Positions 2,723-61,395 of a DNA stretch of 64,000 nucleotides are shown one piece after another; positions within the stretch are counted from its first letter, which is position 1; the number at the start of each line of letters is the position of its first letter. The stretch comes from an uncultured Actinomycetes bacterium (GTDB lineage: Bacteria; Actinomycetota; Thermoleophilia; Gaiellales; JAICJC01). The DNA lies in the NCBI GenBank assembly GCA_963744065.1, contig CAVUSN010000023.1:45559-109558 (forward strand). Direction: 5' to 3'. The notes under the pieces were generated by a model. It saw only the letters and a list, made by a program, of their open reading frames with translations, did not search any database and was not told the DNA's origin. Both the position numbers and the translations under genes were made by a program.

Positions 2723-3418
2723 CTACGTTTCGGAGGGATCGACCAGCCGGTAGCCGGCTCCGGGCTCGGTCAGCAGGTGCCGCGGCCTGGTCGGGTCGCG
2801 CTCGATCTTCTGGCGCAGACGCGAGATGTACACGTGCAGGTAGTGCGACTCGACCTGATAGGAGGGGCCCCACACCCGCTGCAGGATCATGCGGTGGGTG
2901 AGCAGCTTGCCGCGGTTCTCGGCGAACAGCCGCAGCAGCTGGAACTCGGTGCGGGTCAACTGCACCGGCGAGCCGCCCACGCGCACGGACTGGGCGTCCA
3001 GGTCGATCTCCAGATCGTCCATCGTCATCACCGGTTCGGGCGGGCGCGGCACCCGCCGCAGCACCGCGCGCAGGCGGGCGGTCAACTCGTTGAGCCCGAA
3101 CGGCTTGGTCACGTAGTCGTCAGCGCCGGCGTCCAGCGCGTCCACCTTGGTGCGCTCCTCGCCCACCGCCGACAGCACCACGATCGGCATGTCGGAGTGC
3201 TCGCGGACGTGCCGGCAGACGTCGATCCCGCTCATGTCGGGCAGGATCAGGTCGAGCACCATCGCATCGGGTGGGTGGGCGCTGAGCATGGCCAGCGCCT
3301 CTCCGCCGGTGGCGGCCTGCTGCACCTCGTAGCCGGCCCCGCGCAGGTTGGTGGAGAGCGCTCGCAGGATCTGCGGCTCGTCGTCCACGACCAGGATGCG
3401 AGCCTTGGCGGCGCTCAC
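2723..3418 (-). CDS. kdpE: OmpR-family response regulator KdpE
   Basis: GTG start. Receiver domain (ILVVDDEPQILRAL, LPDMSG, YVTKPF) plus winged-helix domain (LTRTEFQLLRLFAENRGKLLTHRMILQRVWG). Last gene of the kdp operon. Confidence 0.9.
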   Translation of the reverse strand: MSAAKARILVVDDEPQILRALSTNLRGAGYEVQQAATGGEALAMLSAHPPDAMVLDLILPDMSGIDVCRHVREHSDMPIVVLSAVGEERTKVDALDAGADDYVTKPFGLNELTARLRAVLRRVPRPPEPVMTMDDLEIDLDAQSVRVGGSPVQLTRTEFQLLRLFAENRGKLLTHRMILQRVWGPSYQVESHYLHVYISRLRQKIERDPTRPRHLLTEPGAGYRLVDPSET

Positions 3419-3436
3419 TCAGGCGATTCTTGCAGA

Positions 3437-3628
3437 GGGGGATGATTCAGGGTGGCGCCGTCACGAGGCGCAGGATGCGGGCACGCTGGCAAGGATCGAG
3501 CGGCGAGCGGAGCGCAGGCACCGGCCCGAAGGGCCGCGGAGGCCGCGTTGAGCACCGCACGCCGTGTGGGACGCGGCCAGCCTGCCCGCAGACCAGCCGC
3601 AGCAGGCGCTCATCCTGGGTCAGCCCCC
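3437..3628 (+). repeat. structured repeat element, copy A (imperfect inverted termini, internal long-range stem)
   Basis: Aligns with the reverse complement of 59629..59809: one 29/29 block and one 32/34 block. Stem 3477..3490 / 3576..3589 pairs at 13 of 14 positions. Fills the kdpD-kdpE intergenic gap. Its right end overlaps the last codons of the kinase gene. Confidence 0.65.
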
Positions 3629-5028
3629 AAAGGCAGCGCGAGCGCGAAAGACGCCCCTTGCGCGGGCTGCGACTCGGCCCACAGCCTGCCGCCGTTGGCC
3701 TGCGCGAAGCCGCGCGCGATGGCCAGCCCGAGGCCGGCCCGGGCGCCGTTCCCGCCGCCCGTGTCTCCGGTTGTAAACGGCTCGAAGATCCGCTCCAGAT
3801 CGGCGGCCGGGATGCCCGGGCCGCGGTCGATCACGCGCACGATCACCTCCTGCCGGGTGCAGTTGCCGCGCACGGTCACCGGCTCACCGGGCGGCGAGTG
3901 CCGAATCGCGTTCTCCAGCAGGTTGACCAGGATCCGCTGGGCATGCACAGGGTCGATGCGCACCGGCGGCAGGTCCTTGGGCAGCAGCACCTGCACCTCG
4001 TGCCCGCGCTCGTCCAGCCCGGTCAGGGCCTGGGCCAGCAGCGAGTCGACCGTCCACAGCTCGGCCGCCGGCTCGGCCGCGTTGGCCTGCAGGCGGGACA
4101 GGTCGAGCAGGTTGGAGACCAGCCGGGTCAGCCGCTCGGCCTCCACCTGGATCGTCTCCAGCAGGCCCGCGCGATCCTCCTGGCTCAGCTCCAACGCAGG
4201 GTTGCGAAGCCCCTCCACGGCGGTTCGGATGGCTGTCAGGGGCGTCCGGAAGTCGTGGCTGACGGCCTGCAGGACGGCCGTCTTCGTGGTGTCGGAGCGG
4301 CGCAGGGTCTCGGTCTCCAGCGCCTGCTCCGCCAGCCGCTCGCGATCGATGGCGACCGCCAGCAGAGACGCCAGCGCTGGCAGGAACCGGCGGCGGGCGG
4401 CCAACGAGATGTCCGCCCTTTCGTCCACATACAGCGTGCCCACGTGGCGGCCGCCAGCGGTCAGTTCGAGTGGCGACTCGCCAGCCGGCGGCGGGCTGGG
4501 CGGGCCCAGTTCGATGCGTGCGCGCGTGCCACCCAGCACGCGCGCGGACCGCTCGGCCAGCCGCTCCAACTCCTCGGCGATCAGCGTCCCGCCCAGCAGC
4601 GCGGTGGCCAGGTCTGCAACCACGGCCGTCTCCCCGGCCCGCCGCTCGGCCTCGATCGCCCGCGAACGCGATCGGGCAGTCAGGCTGGACACCACGATGG
4701 CGGTGGCCAGGTACACGGCCAGGGCGACCCAGTTGCGCGAGTCGGACAACGTGAAGGTGCCCACCGGAGGCAGGAAGAACCAGTTGAAGGCCAGCATGCT
4801 GGCGACCGAGACGACAACCGAGTAGGCGATTCCAAAGCCGATCGCCACCGCCAGCACGGGGAAGACGTACAGCACGCCCAGGCTGAGCACCGGGGCGACC
4901 AATTTCAAGAGCTCGACCGCCACGGTGGTCAGTGCGACTGCGACCACGCTTCCGGCAAGCGCAGCGGCGTGCCGTCGGCGGCCGCGCAGCGACTGCACGA
5001 CGTGCAGCAGTTCGTGGGCTTTGTTCAT
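3610..5028 (-). CDS. kdpD: KdpD sensor histidine kinase, membrane plus catalytic part (split KdpD, C-terminal module)
   Basis: ATG at 5028 (MNKAHELL) overlaps the stop of the upstream USP ORF (ATGA). Four TM segments, H-box AVSHDFRTPLTAI, HATPase motifs DRGPGIP and GLGLAIARG. Confidence 0.9.
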   Translation of the reverse strand: MNKAHELLHVVQSLRGRRRHAAALAGSVVAVALTTVAVELLKLVAPVLSLGVLYVFPVLAVAIGFGIAYSVVVSVASMLAFNWFFLPPVGTFTLSDSRNWVALAVYLATAIVVSSLTARSRSRAIEAERRAGETAVVADLATALLGGTLIAEELERLAERSARVLGGTRARIELGPPSPPPAGESPLELTAGGRHVGTLYVDERADISLAARRRFLPALASLLAVAIDRERLAEQALETETLRRSDTTKTAVLQAVSHDFRTPLTAIRTAVEGLRNPALELSQEDRAGLLETIQVEAERLTRLVSNLLDLSRLQANAAEPAAELWTVDSLLAQALTGLDERGHEVQVLLPKDLPPVRIDPVHAQRILVNLLENAIRHSPPGEPVTVRGNCTRQEVIVRVIDRGPGIPAADLERIFEPFTTGDTGGGNGARAGLGLAIARGFAQANGGRLWAESQPAQGASFALALPLGADPG

Positions 5029-5456
5029 GCCGCCACTGGGCCCGGCCGCAGCACCAGCGTCTCGGTCGGCGCATGGATCAGGATCCAGGCCAGGTCGCGC
5101 TCGTCGAAACCGCCTCGATCCCCGGCAGTGGCCGGCAGGATGACGCGGTCGAAGTGCTCGACCGTCCACAACTGGGTGAGTGCGTCGCGCAGCGACCGCC
5201 CGCGCTCCATGCGGGTGTCGATGGGCACGCCGGCCCGCCGGGCCTCGTGCTCGATCGTCTCCAGCGCAGGCAGCGCCCGCCCCACCTGTTCGGCCAGCGG
5301 GCTGTCCAGAGGGTAGTTGAGGGGCACGACCAGCAGGCAGGCCGCCACCAGGGTCGCGTCCTCGGCGCGGGCGATCCGGAAGGCCGCCTGCAGCACGACC
5401 GGATCAAGCTCGCCGCCCGAAAAGGCGACCAGCACGCGCCTCGACGTACCGGCCAT
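5025..5456 (-). CDS. universal stress protein-like domain protein between the two KdpD modules
   Basis: MAGTSRRVLVAFSGGELDPVVLQAAFRIARAEDATLVAACLLVVP...RVILPATAG: USP-like alternating fold pattern. Stop overlaps the start of the kinase module. Confidence 0.65.
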   Translation of the reverse strand: MAGTSRRVLVAFSGGELDPVVLQAAFRIARAEDATLVAACLLVVPLNYPLDSPLAEQVGRALPALETIEHEARRAGVPIDTRMERGRSLRDALTQLWTVEHFDRVILPATAGDRGGFDERDLAWILIHAPTETLVLRPGPVAA

Positions 5457-5476
5457 GCGGCTGCGGCCCGGCCATC

Positions 5477-6583
5477 TCATGCCACCGGCTCCGGGCGTTC
5501 GGCGGGATCCGCGCATATTCGCAGGTCGATGCCGGGGAGCGCGTCCAGCAGTTCATCGAGCGGCGTTCGGCCGCGCAGCAGGGCCATCCGGCTGCGCCGC
5601 GGCCTGGAGACGAAGACGTAGGTCGTGCCGCGGTCGGCCGCGACCCGAGCGACGGCTGCCAGCGGGTCGGGGTCCTCCTCCTCCAGGAAGTGCACCCCCA
5701 GCAGCACGGCCAGCCGGCGCAGGGCGGCCACGGTCACCCGCTCCGCCTCGTCCAGCCGGTCGCCGGGCGAGCGGATCAGCAGGGCGTCGATATCGGCGTT
5801 CAGGCGCTGGCCCGACCGCCACGCCCGCCGCAGTACGCGTTGCGAGCGGGGGGACGGCTCGACCAGCACCAGGATCCGCTCGGTGACCGCGCCCCGCATC
5901 GGGATCTCGTCGTCGCCGGAGTGGATGGCGGTTGCCGAGCGGCGGGCCTCGACGTCCTCGGCCACCTCGCGCAGGGCCAGCTGGCGCAGCGACTGCAGGT
6001 TGTCGGTGCGGAAGAAGTTCTCGAGCGCCGTTTGCACGCGGCCACGCGGGTACACCTTGCCGGCCTGGATGCGCTCTCGCAGCTCCTGCGGCGTCAGGTC
6101 AACCAGCACCACCTCATCCGCATCGTCCAGCACCCGGTCGGGAAACGTCTCCCGCACCCGCACGCCGGTGGTCTCGAAGACGACGTCGTTCAGGCTCTCG
6201 AGGTGCTGGATGTTGACCGTCGAGATGACGTCGATGCCGGCGTCCAGGATCTGCTCGATGTCCTCGTAGCGCTTGCTGTGCGCCGAGCCGGGGGGGTTGG
6301 TGTGGGCCAGCTCGTCCACCAGCGCCAGCTCGGGTACGCGCCGGATCACGGCCTCGGTGTCCATCTCCTCGATCCGCACGTCGCCGTGCTCGACGGCCCG
6401 CCGCGGAACCACCTCGAGCCCCTCGGCGAGGGCGATCGTCTCGGGCCGGTCGTGCGGCTCCAGGTACCCGATCACCACGTCCACCCCCTGCTCAACGGCC
6501 TGGCGGCCCTCCAGCAGCATCCGATAGGTCTTGCCGACGCCAGCGGCGGCGCCAAGCAGGATTCTGTGGTGTCCTCGCGACAC
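5477..6583 (-). CDS. kdpD: KdpD N-terminal sensor module (KdpD_N P-loop domain plus USP domain) as a separate ORF
   Basis: GTG at 6583. ILLGAAAGVGKTYRML P-loop; VISTVNIQHLESLND; LTPQELRERIQAGKVY; then a USP-like ILVLVEPSPRSQRVLRRA segment. The track ORF extension to 6874 overlaps kdpB and is Arg/His-rich. Confidence 0.85.
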   Translation of the reverse strand: MSRGHHRILLGAAAGVGKTYRMLLEGRQAVEQGVDVVIGYLEPHDRPETIALAEGLEVVPRRAVEHGDVRIEEMDTEAVIRRVPELALVDELAHTNPPGSAHSKRYEDIEQILDAGIDVISTVNIQHLESLNDVVFETTGVRVRETFPDRVLDDADEVVLVDLTPQELRERIQAGKVYPRGRVQTALENFFRTDNLQSLRQLALREVAEDVEARRSATAIHSGDDEIPMRGAVTERILVLVEPSPRSQRVLRRAWRSGQRLNADIDALLIRSPGDRLDEAERVTVAALRRLAVLLGVHFLEEEDPDPLAAVARVAADRGTTYVFVSRPRRSRMALLRGRTPLDELLDALPGIDLRICADPAERPEPVA

Positions 6584-6630
6584 CGCTTCATCCTGCCATG
6601 GCGCCGCCGTCGGCGCGTGGCGGGGAGTTC

Positions 6631-8688
6631 TCAAGCGCCCAGCACGTTGTGCACCACCAGATCGATCAGCTTGATGCCGATGAACGGGGCGATGATGCCG
6701 CCCAGCCCGTAGATCAGCAGGTTGCGGCGGAGCAGCGCGGTCGCGCCGATGGCCCGGTAGCGGACACCCTTCAGCGACAGCGGGATCAGGATCGGGATCA
6801 CGATCGCGTTGAAGATGATGGCCGACGTGACCGCCGACAGCGGCGTGCCCAGCTTCATGATGTTGATCGTCCACAGCGGGCCGTGGTCACCGGGCTTGGA
6901 GGCGTAGGTGAACGCGAACATGGCCGGCAGGATGGCGAAGTACTTGGCCACGTCGTTGGCAATCGAGAACGTGGTCAGCGCGCCGCGGGTGATCAGGAGC
7001 TGCTTTCCCACCTCGACGATCTCGATCAGCTTGGTCGGATTGGAGTCCAGGTCGACCATGTTGCCGGCCTCCTTGGCCGCCTGGGTGCCGGTGTTCATGG
7101 CCACGCCCACGTCGGCCTGGGCCAGGGCGGGGGCGTCGTTGGTGCCGTCGCCGGTCATCCCGACCATCCGGCCCTTGGACTGCTCCTCCTTGATCAGGGC
7201 CATCTTGTCCTCGGGCGTGGCCTCCGCCAGGAAGTCGTCCACACCCGCCTCGTTGGCGATGAAGGCTGCGGTGACCGGGTTGTCGCCGGTGATCATGACC
7301 GTGCGGATGCCCATCTTGCGCAGCTCGTCGAAGCGCTCGCGGATGCCACCCTTGACGATGTCCTTGAGGTAGATCACGCCCAGCGTGAAGTTGTCACGGG
7401 CGACAACCAGCGGCGTCCCGCCCTCACGGGCGATCCGCTCGACCGCCGAGTCCACCTCGGCCGGCACCCGGCCGCCGCTCTCCTCCACGAACTTCCGCAC
7501 CGCGTCGGTGGCGCCCTTGCGGATGGAGCTGCCGTGCATATTGACGCCGCTCATGCGGGTGGTGGCGGAGAAGGGCACGAACTCGGCGTCCAGCGTCGAC
7601 AGCTCGTGCTCGCGCACGCCGTACTGCTTGGCCAGCACGACGATCGAGCGGCCCTCCGGCGTCTCGTCCGACAGTGAGGACAGCTGGGCAGCCTCGGCCA
7701 GGTCATGCGCCTCGACGCCGGGCGCCGCGATGAACTCAACCGCCTCGCGGTTGCCCAGGGTGATGGTGCCGGTCTTATCCAGCAGCAGCACGTCGATGTC
7801 GCCCGATGCCTCGACCGCGCGGCCGGACAGGGCCAGCACGTTGCGGCGCACCAGCCGGTCCATGCCGGCGATGCCGATGCACGAGAGCAGGGCGCCGATG
7901 GTGGTGGGGATGAGCGCGACCAGCAGGCAGATCAGCACGGTGGTGGAGACGCCACTCTTTGCGTACAGCGCGAACGGCTGCAGCGTGACCACGGCCACCA
8001 GAAAGATCACGGTCAACCCGGCAAGCAGGATGTTCAGGGCGACCTCGTTGGGCGTCTTGCGCCGGGCGGCACCCTCCACCAGTGAGATCATGCGATCCAG
8101 GAACGACTTGCCCGGCTCCTGCGTGACCTGCACCACCAGCCGGTCGGACAGAAGGCGCGTGCCGCCGGTGACAGCCGAGCGGTCGCCGCCGGACTCGCGG
8201 ATGACGGGAGCCGACTCGCCGGTGATGGCGGACTCGTCCACCGACCCGATGCCCTCGATCACATCGCCGTCGGCCGGGATCGGCTCGCCCGCCTCCACTA
8301 TCACCACGTCGCCGCGCTGCAGTTCCGGTGCTGGCACCTGCTCGGTGGAGCCGTCCGCGCGCCGGCGGGTGGCCGCGGTCGTTGTGCGCATCGAACGCAG
8401 GGTGTCGGCCTGGGCCTTTCCGCGGCCCTCGGCGATCGCCTCGGCGAAGTTCGCGAAGAGCACGGTCAACCACAGCCAGATGGCGATGTCGCCGGTGAAC
8501 CACAGCGGCTGGCCGCCTGACCCGAACAGGTTGATGATGAAGGTGGCGGTGGTCATGACTGACCCCACCTCGACAACGAACATGACGGGGTTTCGCAGCT
8601 GGATGCGGGGATCCAGCTTCTTGAACGAGTCGATTGTCGCGCGCGTGACGATCTCGCGCGTGAGAAGTTTGGCGGACTGCCGGGCCAT
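6631..8688 (-). CDS. kdpB: potassium-transporting P-type ATPase subunit KdpB
   Basis: 685 aa. DKTGTIT phosphorylation site, [20 protein letters not shown] overlaps the kdpC stop (ATGA). Confidence 0.97.
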
Positions 8689-18397: not shown

Positions 18398-18440
18398 GGC
18401 CGGTGCCTGGCACCTGCCTGGCACCTGCCTGGCACCGGCC
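18398..18440. repeat. GGCCGGTGCC-type palindromic element with three tandem TGCCTGGCACC 11-mers; probable bidirectional terminator
   Basis: GGCCGG(TGCCTGGCACC)x3 GGCC between convergent stops. Related to the perfect palindrome at 27817..27848. Confidence 0.7.
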
Positions 18441-59478: not shown

Positions 59479-59628
59479 TTCCGCTCGGTTCCGTCGCCTA
59501 GAGACAATTCGGGGGCCAGAGGTCATCCCCCGTGGGTGACCATCGGTCACCTGTATGCGAGGGCCCATGGGTCTTGATTCGGTATGCGGTGGCGGTGACG
59601 CCGCCCCCACCCGCCTTCAGCCCGATTC

Positions 59629-59809
59629 AGAACCCGTTTCAGAATGATGTTCTGTTGCGGCTGGTTCGCGGTGGTTGCGGGTGCGTCCCACGCGGCGTGC
59701 GGTGCTCAACGTGGCCTGCGGCCACGCCTGCGCTCCGCTCGCCGCTCGATCCTTCCGGCAACCACCGCGCCCTGCGCCTCACGACGAACCTCATTCTGAA
59801 ACGGGTTCT
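59629..59809 (-). repeat. structured repeat element, copy B, bounded by perfect 18-bp AT-rich inverted repeats (MITE-like)
   Basis: AGAACCCGTTTCAGAATG (59629..59646) and its exact complement CATTCTGAAACGGGTTCT (59792..59809). Internal 12-bp stem 59667..59678 / 59758..59769. The reverse complement aligns with 3437..3628. Confidence 0.75.
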
Positions 59810-61395
59810 TAGGCGCCGGTCAGGTCGCGGCGGCGGAAGCGCCAGTCGGCGAGCGCCAGAGCGGCCACCGCGGTCGCCGACATGATCGCGGCCGCGCCTG
59901 CCCGGAAGGGCTGCGCTGGCACCAACCCGATGTGGTTGAAGGGCGACAGCCCGAGCGTCCACGACGGCACGTTCAGGACCGCTCCGACCAGCTGCCATAT
60001 GAAGGCGGCGCCGACCAGCCCGTAGCCGATGCCGGCGCCGGCCCGCGGCCAGACTGCGAAGCCGAGCGCTGCCAGGCCCAGGAAGAGCAGCGCCGCCGGC
60101 AGGCAGTTGAAGCTTGCCTCCAGCACCCGCGGCAGGCTGACGGCCGCGCCCTGGGTGGCCACGCCAATCCAGGCCGCCAGCCCGGCCGCCAGCGCCAGCA
60201 GCAAACCCCCGGCGACGGCCAGCGCCAGCCGCCCACCCAGCCACGAGCTGCGGCTGACGGGCAGGGCAAGCAGTGTCTCCAGCCTGCTTTCGGCCTCCTC
60301 CCGGCGGGCCGCGGCCACCTGCGCGCAGCCGAAGAGCGCAAACGCCAGCGACCCAAACAGGAAGTACAGGCCCAGCGCACCGGAGGGGGTGGCGATCGAC
60401 GCGCCCAGCTTGTGCAGCTGGTTGCGCAGGCTGGCCGGGATGCTGCTCTGGGTGAAGCTGGACGCGAGGCTGCCCACGATCAGCGCGAACAGGCCGACCC
60501 CAACCATCCAGGCGATCAAGCTGCCTCGTTCCGAGCGCAGCGCCTGAGCGGTGGGTGAGCCGAGCAGCCGCAGGTCGGCACGAGCCGTGTCGTGGGCCTC
60601 GACCAGGCCGCGGCCAACGTCACGCCGGACTGCGATTCCGAGTGCTCCCGCCAGCAGCACGGCGGTGGTCAGCGCCGGCAGCAGCAGGACGGCCGGCCGG
60701 GCGCCGCTGAATGCCCGCATCTGCTCCGTCCAGCCCAGCGGCGTGGCCCACAGGAGCCAGCTCACGCCGGACGCCGTATCGGCCACCACCCGCACCAGCA
60801 GGGCGGCCACGAACAGGCCGCTGGTGGCCATCAGGGCCAGCCGCCGGGTGGGTGCGATCTGGCTGGCCAGGGCGCCGACGCCGACGAAGACACTGCCCAC
60901 CGACATGATGGCCAGCGCCAGGTAGGCCGATCCGCCGGGGGCCAGCCCGGGGGCGACCAGGCCGGCGGCCAGCGCCAGCCACAGCAGCGCCGCCTCGAAG
61001 GCCAGGCTGGCCAGGATGCTCAGGTTGGCCTGCAGGCGGCTGAGCGAGCGGGCCAGCACCAGCTCCATCCGGCCCGACTCCTCCTCGCCCCGGAATGCCC
61101 GCACGGAGGCGATCACTCCCCAGGCCCCGGCCAGCATGACCCCGCCGCCGCCCACCCGCCAGGCCACGTAGCCGCCGACGTGGATCAGGTCGTGGGGCAC
61201 GCCGTAGAAGAGCCGTATCGCCTTATCTGAGCCGAAGGTGGTCGCGAACGCCCGGCGGTCGGCGATCGTCGGGTAGGCGTCACGGTACCCGACCACGTTG
61301 GCGACGGCGTAGAAGACGAAGATGAGGCCGAATGAACCTGCCCGGATGCGGCCGTCGGCCAGCGTACGGAGGCTGATCGCTCTAACGGCCGCCAT
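59809..61395 (-). CDS. ABC-2-type transporter permease
   Basis: 528 aa, about 12 hydrophobic segments. Overlaps the ATPase gene by 14 nt. Confidence 0.85.
   Translation of the reverse strand: MAAVRAISLRTLADGRIRAGSFGLIFVFYAVANVVGYRDAYPTIADRRAFATTFGSDKAIRLFYGVPHDLIHVGGYVAWRVGGGGVMLAGAWGVIASVRAFRGEEESGRMELVLARSLSRLQANLSILASLAFEAALLWLALAAGLVAPGLAPGGSAYLALAIMSVGSVFVGVGALASQIAPTRRLALMATSGLFVAALLVRVVADTASGVSWLLWATPLGWTEQMRAFSGARPAVLLLPALTTAVLLAGALGIAVRRDVGRGLVEAHDTARADLRLLGSPTAQALRSERGSLIAWMVGVGLFALIVGSLASSFTQSSIPASLRNQLHKLGASIATPSGALGLYFLFGSLAFALFGCAQVAAARREEAESRLETLLALPVSRSSWLGGRLALAVAGGLLLALAAGLAAWIGVATQGAAVSLPRVLEASFNCLPAALLFLGLAALGFAVWPRAGAGIGYGLVGAAFIWQLVGAVLNVPSWTLGLSPFNHIGLVPAQPFRAGAAAIMSATAVAALALADWRFRRRDLTGA

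Follow-up and report, generated by a model that had tools for sequence, protein, structure and literature searches.

The 64-kb stretch of DNA from an uncultured Actinomycetes bacterium analyzed here, referred to as the window throughout, carries two copies of a structured repeat of about 180 nt, copy A at the junction of kdpD and kdpE and copy B at the end of a gene for an ABC-2 membrane protein, and thereby raises the question of what kind of element keeps its structure while its sequence changes. An earlier note, made from these two copies, had proposed either a functional RNA or a mobile element. Our analysis shows that the element is real, strongly structured, and mobile, and that it represents a new family of a known element type with an unusual conservation pattern: copies A and B probably belong to a previously undescribed family of miniature inverted-repeat transposable elements (MITEs), i.e., non-autonomous DNA transposons, which is so far confined to Gaiellales-like soil actinobacteria and in which the single-stranded fold appears to be under selection.

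Copy A comprises 192 nt (3437–3628) with its sense strand on the plus strand, antisense to kdpD and kdpE, while copy B comprises 179 nt (59630–59808) with its sense strand on the minus strand, its limits being set by homology with other copies; the sense strand is defined as the one bearing AAGGATCGAGCGG. The alignment of the reverse complement of 59629–59809 with 3437–3628, from which the earlier note had started, was reproduced, as were the conserved blocks shared by both copies: AAGGATCGAGCGGCGAGCGGAGCGCAGGC (29/29 identical) occurs in the window at 3491–3519 (plus strand) and 59726–59754 (minus strand) only, the 28-nt block GTTGAGCACCGCACGCCGYGTGGGACGC at 3547–3574 and 59683–59710 only, and neither was matched in 100 shuffles. 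The long-range stems claimed for the two copies were confirmed as well, with 13/14 pairs between 3477–3490 and 3576–3589 in copy A and 12/12 pairs between 59667–59678 and 59758–59769 in copy B. The sense strand of either copy is predicted to form a single long hairpin (copy A, −122.2 kcal/mol, z = −6.3; copy B, −118.9 kcal/mol, z = −11.2), and the antisense strand of copy A folds 13 kcal/mol weaker than its sense strand. From the outside inward, copy A (all parts on the plus strand) consists of an outer stem, P1, with a 5′ arm (3437–3459) that is specific to this copy in sequence and pairs with the 3′ arm at 3606–3628; a middle stem, P2, with 3477–3490 as its 5′ arm; and a conserved core (3491–3575), in which a 5′ block (3491–3519) and a 3′ block (3547–3575) enclose a variable apical hairpin that is 12 nt longer in copy A. 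Copy B begins with GAAC and ends with GTTC, as part of the canonical terminal inverted repeats GAACCCGTTTCAGAATG and complement.

Whether the pairing is truly maintained was assessed in an alignment of 27 full-length copies (A2), using an RNAalifold consensus and a covariance model (R1) built from the same copies. R1 recognizes copy A with 137.6 bits (E = 1.6e-28, over 3435–3630) and copy B with 208.3 bits (E = 5e-44), and it detects no third copy in the window. Full-length copies are strikingly constant in length (mostly 176–185 nt, with a full range of 176–193 nt, the 192 nt of copy A being owed to its longer apical hairpin) and all have complementary termini of 19–24 bp. The consensus is one rod of 60 pairs, comprising P1 (20 pairs), short conserved pairs, P2 (the covarying columns 44–58/144–158), a bulged core helix, and the apical hairpin. 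Standard pairs were found in 95.4% of 1618 cells, and 34 pairs have changed on both sides; none of 500 shuffles reached any of the pairing measures, and sliding the 3′ partners by 1–3 columns left only 31–45% pairing. The claim that structure is kept while sequence changes is thereby carried far beyond what a pair of copies could provide. Conservation is distributed unevenly along the rod, with a mean pairwise identity of 0.48 in P1, 0.67 in P2, and 0.92–0.95 in the core, and despite its low identity P1 is paired in 90.7% of cells. Within the core, the pair 71–130 is G-C in 23 copies, G-U in 2, and A-U in 2, and columns 62–63 and 138–139 form the invariant 2×2 internal loop (5′-GA/3′-AG, GA/GA) that is also contained in copy A, located between a G-C pair and a helix of U·G, C-G, and G·U. 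The element lacks an open reading frame (ORF), and since its core is conserved at every position across species, the core is not under codon-type constraint. An origin of the variable outer stems from insertion into pre-existing hairpins was considered and ruled out by the constant length and the conserved terminal GGRG or GAAC bases.

One implication of the earlier note did not hold, namely that the two copies of the window diverged from each other by compensatory change. P2 of copy A (ATGCGGGCACGCTGGC) is of a type seen in the metagenome-assembled genome (MAG) bin260, whereas P2 and the ends of copy B are of a type seen in MAG La1 and others. Judged by these sequence types, copies A and B therefore represent two subfamilies that co-occur in other species, rather than a pair that diverged within this genome.

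The wobble pairs indicate which strand is folded, as an A·C cell on the sense strand corresponds to a G·U pair on the opposite strand. Across the 27 copies, G·U cells exceed A·C cells on the sense strand by 140:19 overall and by 86:19 in varying pairs, and a hand tally of pair types gave 38:10 for the fast-evolving P1; the overall excess argues that one strand carries the structure. The direction of this bias is alike in every lineage examined and, in 10 out of 10 relatives with other interiors, the sense strand as recognized by R1 folds 12–27 kcal/mol better than its complement. Pairing might in principle be kept without any selection, if intrastrand template switching homogenized the palindromes of an ordinary palindromic MITE and G+C pressure converted A-T to G-C on both arms, leaving covariation as a by-product. 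In line with this, many differences between the outer stems of copy A and of elements with canonical ends are A→G changes mirrored by T→C, and single-copy variants have perfect or near-perfect arms. However, template switching is strand-neutral and, thus, cannot make G·U 4- to 7-fold more frequent than A·C, nor would it leave intact the asymmetric internal loops that all 27 copies share without variation. In addition, several of the compensated changes are transversions. We consider this explanation very improbable. As template switching and G+C pressure cannot account for the strand bias or the kept asymmetric loops, we infer that selection acts on a folded, single-stranded form of the sense strand, with RNA and single-stranded DNA (ssDNA) being alike possible as its material.

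The element is not restricted to the window. Two exact-pattern scans, covering one genome per species, revealed 23 and 18 further loci, i.e., 41 loci with the core, in 11 MAGs that bear the label Gaiellales or uncultured Actinomycetes and contain 1–11 loci each; since the scan patterns were exact, these counts are lower bounds. One additional pattern match (L038) was discarded as a chance match. The genome of the window itself lies outside the scanned collection, because its KdpE reaches a best identity of only 66%, to a Gaiellaceae MAG. In soil metagenomes that hold the window sequence, words of the core occur at a depth of 200–400, compared to 3–12 for the flanks. In metagenome contigs that have unrelated sequence upstream of copy B, the break always falls at 59629, with the joined flanks ending in TTA or TAA. 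Besides full-length copies, R1 recovers truncated, tandemly duplicated, and nested ones. Among rearranged copies, the core is partially duplicated in tandem at L040 (2852–3072), a 305-nt element at L149 (121–425) has about 140 nt inserted at its apex, the copy at L035 (5235–5405) lacks the 5′ half, and a 46-nt 3′ fragment adjoins a full copy at L002 (~1855–1900). Searches of viral contigs gave no match to the element, and literature searches by sequence strings and by taxon returned nothing relevant. Of the proteins of neighboring genes that were looked up by exact match, two had no record and one was listed on a contig lacking DNA.

How such copies came to be dispersed is indicated by their ends. 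Inverted repeats of the sequence GAACnnGTTTCAGAATG terminate copy B and many of its relatives (fuller form GAACyCGTTTCAGAATG and complement), and several elements start with GAACCTGT. Among the matches listed, the 3-nt flanks outside GAAC...GTTC are identical in 16 of the 32 elements with both ends and one base off in another 12, whereas the next 3 nt outward, which served as a control, are identical in 1/32. These flanks read TAA, TTA, TCA, TGA, or CTA, the last being TAG on the other strand. For copy B, the two target-duplication positions are TAA at 59809–59811 and TGA at 59627–59629 (both minus strand), differing by one base; the TAA doubles as the stop codon of the gene upstream, which encodes the ABC-2 membrane protein (59809–61395; identified by Pfam), the end of which coincides exactly with copy B. 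The IS1031 subgroup of the IS5 family is described as targeting TNA and generating direct repeats of 3 bp only, and one of its members, ISLrh, has the inverted repeat GAACCTGTCTAGTATCT (PMC12016507). The ends are placed with this subgroup because both the 3-bp TNA duplications, its exclusive trait, and the GAAC-type termini fit it. An IS1031-subgroup DDE transposase, acting in trans, is thus most likely what moves the element. Copies lie between genes or extend a few bases into gene ends, often within operons (according to a table of their neighbors); in a genome of 70% G+C, TAA, TTA, and TGA sites would be found mostly at stop codons, and this target preference would account for the placement of copies next to gene ends and within operons.

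Further traits of MITEs are a length under ~300 bp, the lack of coding capacity, terminal inverted repeats, target duplications (in elements with canonical ends), dispersed copies, and presence/absence polymorphism, all of which were observed, and it is on account of its ends, duplications, copy number, and empty sites that we place the family among MITEs. A match to the end of a known insertion sequence (IS) or MITE had been named in the earlier note as speaking against its proposal; the IS1031-type ends have indeed turned the interpretation away from a free-standing RNA gene and toward a MITE-type element.

The empty sites were found at the kdp locus, the context of which, as previously described, is borne out by KdpE and kinase domains that Pfam finds on either side of copy A. 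Its downstream neighbor is kdpE (2723–3418, minus strand; an OmpR-type response regulator with Response_reg and Trans_reg_C domains), separated from copy A by an 18-nt spacer (3419–3436) that begins at the kdpE GTG start. On the other side, the histidine-kinase half of kdpD (3610–5169, minus strand; DUF4118, HisKA, and HATPase_c) reaches 19 nt into copy A with its 3′ end, so that the 3′ arm of P1 also encodes, on the minus strand, the end of the kinase ORF. The right terminus of copy A had been said to supply the last six codons and the stop of the kinase gene; the stop (3610–3612) and the contribution of codons were confirmed, but the latter amounts to five full codons plus one base of a Leu codon. 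A 397-nt soil-metagenome contig (run X12) matches 3111–3430 and 3627–3685 at ~95% identity and carries 18 nt (GTCACTCCGAAGGGACCT) where the window has 196 nt (3431–3626), thus representing an empty allele. The same empty junction, via GTCACTCCGCGGCGATCT, is present in a 184-nt soil-metagenome contig (run X6) with flanks that are ~95% identical to the window. Closely related populations thus differ in whether the element occupies this junction. On the gene strand, these alleles read through a KdpD tail ...LPLE(VPS or IAA)E, TGA, and 13 nt to the GTG of kdpE. The tails in alleles without the element are thus LPLEVPSE and LPLEIAAE, and in distant relatives kdpD and kdpE overlap by GTGA or ATGA; because element-free alleles differ in this way, the kdpD-kdpE junction varies even without the element. 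The idea that excising exactly 3437–3628 would restore an ancestral kdpD frame with a GTGA overlap onto kdpE was dropped, since the frame stays open but the empty alleles from metagenomes end otherwise.

With respect to the origin of copy A, the outer ~16 nt of its P1 occur in metagenomes at the depth of the flanks, while the inner element occurs at 150–550x. Since its depth equals that of the flanks and the rest of the element is abundant, the particular outer stem of copy A is rare or unique. Its abundant relatives end in GGAGGTsGTwCC..., as do four copies in MAG bin260. Copy A is best viewed as a member of a diverged subfamily that entered the 3′ end of kdpD in antisense orientation, an event that would have replaced the last codons of the kinase and separated the two genes by a highly stable hairpin. 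It should be noted that KdpD is split over two ORFs in different frames of the minus strand, one for the N-terminal sensor domain (5477–6874; identified by Pfam) and one (3610–5403) with a USP-like start followed by DUF4118, HisKA, and HATPase. Possible causes are a natural split, a frameshift, and an error of the assembly.

Several points weigh against reading the family as MITEs with a selected fold. The cells of the alignment are not independent events, and related copies inflate the G·U count; moreover, G+C pressure might be responsible for part of the A→G and T→C changes of the arms, with no need for pairing to be selected. Non-canonical subfamilies (ends GGAGG..., GACCC..., or GGGGG...), including that of copy A, do not have a clear TNA duplication, none is visible around copy A itself, and the filled and empty kdp alleles differ beyond a clean insertion (196 nt vs. 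18 nt). In ~160 fetched loci, no transposase with matching ends 0.6–3.5 kb apart was found, which is why the transposase is deduced from ends and duplications. The only long end pair, at L128, lies in an acidobacterial gene of low G+C and matches by chance, and L165, examined as a candidate parent element, carries an XRE-type gene instead of a transposase. Finally, a sequence-specific DDE transposase alone leaves the covariation of the terminal repeats, the wobble strand bias, and the near-invariant interior unexplained. Most likely, the fold serves as a structure that is recognized by a protein and needed for the persistence or movement of the element, and the folded form may be either a transcript of the element or ssDNA that becomes accessible in replication or transposition. 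Compensatory change in a mobile repeat has a precedent in bcr1 (PMC3184786).

Part of the core has a counterpart outside the family. The apex of the core (CGGAGCGCAG, hairpin, GTCGAGCACCG) is, according to BLAST, 82–86% identical over 44–51 nt to sequence of MOBP plasmids from Burkholderia, Xanthomonas, and Pseudomonas, where the module occurs 2–7 times per plasmid, for example at 2480–2600 of L243 (pBVIE04) and at 1319–1356, 3896–3933, 5139–5176, and 23737–23774 of L244 (Pseudomonas aeruginosa plasmid p1). In the 40 kb of p1 that were examined, all 4 copies are on the minus strand, within ~300-nt repeated modules that contain TACGTA repeats and lie upstream of plus-strand small genes. The fold of the module is a similar, though weaker, rod, and Rfam has no match to it. 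Its position and strand are reminiscent of single-strand promoters in the leading regions of plasmids (PMC11541004), and a role in ssDNA or in regulation is possible. The similarity to the element spans only ~40–50 nt. Since part of the BLAST score comes from the apical hairpin, which is variable within the Gaiellales family, the homology is only suggestive.

These similarities bear on the alternative that the element is a functional noncoding RNA gene family, either a protein-binding small RNA or a new self-cleaving ribozyme, with its own promoter and with the inverted termini acting as a closing helix. The very strong covariation, with G·U pairs on one strand, would be expected of such a gene, the invariant internal loops include a GA/GA loop typical of RNA–protein sites, the core stays 92–95% identical across species while the helices drift, and the similar apical module of unrelated plasmids is always on the same strand. 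In agreement with the earlier note, which had recognized no known RNA family, Rfam at the gathering threshold gave no match in the window and, in 39 related loci, only tRNA and RNase P outside the elements; up to E = 10, copies A and B gave only chance-level matches (UCA1, mir-4864, and Cis52; E = 0.3–1.4). This lack of an Rfam match tells against an RNA gene, as does the fact that neither a sigma-70-like promoter nor an intrinsic terminator is present within or next to copies A and B. The flanks differ at every locus and, therefore, provide no shared external promoter, and the TNA duplications and IS1031-like ends would be unexpected. Likewise, orientation relative to close neighbors is mixed, with the sense strand following incoming transcription in about 9 cases and opposing it in about 13 (hand tally); together with the missing promoter, this mixture counts against an RNA that serves the host. 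An RNA gene family is thus an unlikely explanation. Between the two possibilities named in the earlier note, mobility is supported by multiple copies, sharp termini, many different flanks, inverted repeats, TNA duplications, and empty kdp alleles, whereas an RNA function is not, given the lack of a promoter or terminator consensus and the mixed orientation. Somewhat less doubtful, but still speculative, is the possibility that the core is an autonomous single-stranded module (an RNA that binds protein, a new ribozyme, or an ssDNA signal of the priming or promoter-like type) that was captured and spread through Gaiellales by an IS1031-type MITE. Its counterpart would be the module of MOBP plasmids, where 4–7 copies all lie on the strand opposite to that of the downstream genes. 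If this were true, the element would be a vehicle for a structured signal rather than selfish filler.

Another alternative is that the element moves as folded ssDNA by means of a structure-specific HUH or tyrosine enzyme, in a manner similar to REPIN/RAYT or IS200/IS605, with the hairpin itself being recognized. This would fit with end pairing being kept while end sequence is not (P1 identity of 0.48 with 90.7% of cells paired) and with the strong strand bias of wobble pairs. It would also fit with a weak hint of an orientation bias, the local GC skew in sense orientation being negative at 31/47 loci (mean −0.008, s.e. 0.004, p about 0.04). Yet copies A and B are oppositely oriented within a stretch of uniformly positive GC skew, and no Y1/HUH gene was found among the few neighbors scanned. 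Such systems operate without target duplications or terminal inverted repeats, and the clear 3-bp TNA duplications are at odds with transposition purely by way of ssDNA, which we regard as rather improbable. A recurrent neighbor gene, be it a transposase, RAYT, or reverse transcriptase, was not found either, as an all-versus-all ORF comparison of the loci returned only housekeeping families.

The canonical ends are shared more widely than the core. Among the matches listed, they also bound 130–180-nt elements with quite different interiors in MAGs of Gaiellaceae, Solirubrobacterales, and Patulibacter, all of which fold as rods. What looks like a superfamily with shared ends thus appears to span the class Thermoleophilia. 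Examples of 150–170 nt with GAACnnGTTTCAGAATG ends and TNA flanks are L136 7353–7517, L148 3082–3245, L183 7062–7226, L144 326–495, L145 927–1094, L150 3445–3611, L163 5738–5906, L168 3947–4115, L176 1787–1949, L199 607–772, and L201 5050–5217; these fold as rods with one strand 12–33 kcal/mol better than the other.

Other repeats adjoin the element at some loci. About 170 nt starting with ATTAAATGGATTCGCCGCTCCGGCTGGCC follow it at three loci, L002 1480–1670, L003 5020–5210, and L021 3070–3260 (minus strand). This flank is itself a repeat, two of its three loci being located in one genome beside different genes, and at the orthologous loci L002 and L003 it is near-identical, yet the outer stems of the element are unrelated. 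Furthermore, an AT-rich perfect palindrome, GTGAATAAATGGTGCCTGGCACCATTTATTCAC, adjoins elements in two MAGs and is sometimes doubled (this palindrome and related sites: L002 ~1900–1935, L003 ~5400–5470, L021 ~3455–3490, and the left flanks of L029 and L037); related cores, GGTGCCWGGCACC or GGGGCCAGGCCCC, occur at other loci, and the window contains one exact GGTGCCTGGCACC (18402–18414). The palindromes of the GTGAATAAATGGTGCCTGGCACCATTTATTCAC type look like a second, REP-like repeat family, perhaps offering rare TWA targets.

A near-invariant interior combined with drifting but paired transposase-binding ends and with wobble pairs confined to one strand is not predicted by a double-stranded cut-and-paste picture, which makes the element a clean test case for the role of a folded single strand, RNA or ssDNA, in the maintenance or mobility of MITEs. 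In Gaiellales, abundant and almost uncultured soil bacteria, it marks gene ends and operon junctions. The kdp insertion is an example of an element rewriting the C-terminus of a protein, and it puts a hairpin of −110 to −120 kcal/mol inside a two-component gene pair that is spaced by just 13 nt in related strains. The element breaks short-read assemblies, several of its copies being located where contigs end, and masking or annotating it is advisable in work with MAGs.

Comparison with known systems further delimits the family. REPINs are REP doublets of about 70–110 nt that lack a target duplication and have a RAYT gene per family. The element resembles them in being multi-copy and hairpin-forming, and the single-stranded fold of REPINs may matter; it differs from REPIN/RAYT systems in its target duplications, its single rod with an asymmetric core, and the absence of a recurrent neighbor gene. 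In MITEs of the Correia/NEMIS, Nezha, and Chunjie type, the terminal repeats are the conserved part, and we know of no report of strand-specific covariation over the whole element for these families. Small size, terminal inverted repeats, short target duplications, intergenic or gene-end sites, and very stable predicted hairpins are features that the element shares with them (PMC3184786). Strand-specific folded DNA is also known from plasmid ssDNA signals of 150–300 nt (Frpo/ssi promoters and single-strand origins), and Frpo hairpins carry −35 and −10 elements (PMC11541004). Unlike these, the element has no promoter-like hexamers on either strand, and it is found in a chromosomal context and in mixed orientation. 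The bcr1 repeat of the Bacillus cereus group, a dispersed mobile repeat of ~155 bp, is similar in that compensatory changes keep its structure, in this case at the RNA level (PMC3184786), but it is a transcribed repeat of Firmicutes with 5-bp direct repeats and a cruciform-like arrangement of two stem-loops, in contrast to the one rod and 3-bp TNA repeats described here. With the IS1031 subgroup, finally, the element shares insertion into TNA, the exclusive 3-bp direct repeats (PMC12016507), and ends that start with GAAC, such as GAACCTGTCTAGTATCT in ISLrh compared to GAACCTGTTTCAAAATGA or GAACyCGTTTCAGAATG here. It departs from this subgroup in having no transposase and a length of 180 nt instead of ~860 bp, the parent element not being present in the fetched loci, and in an interior that is conserved above the ends, while the ends covary.

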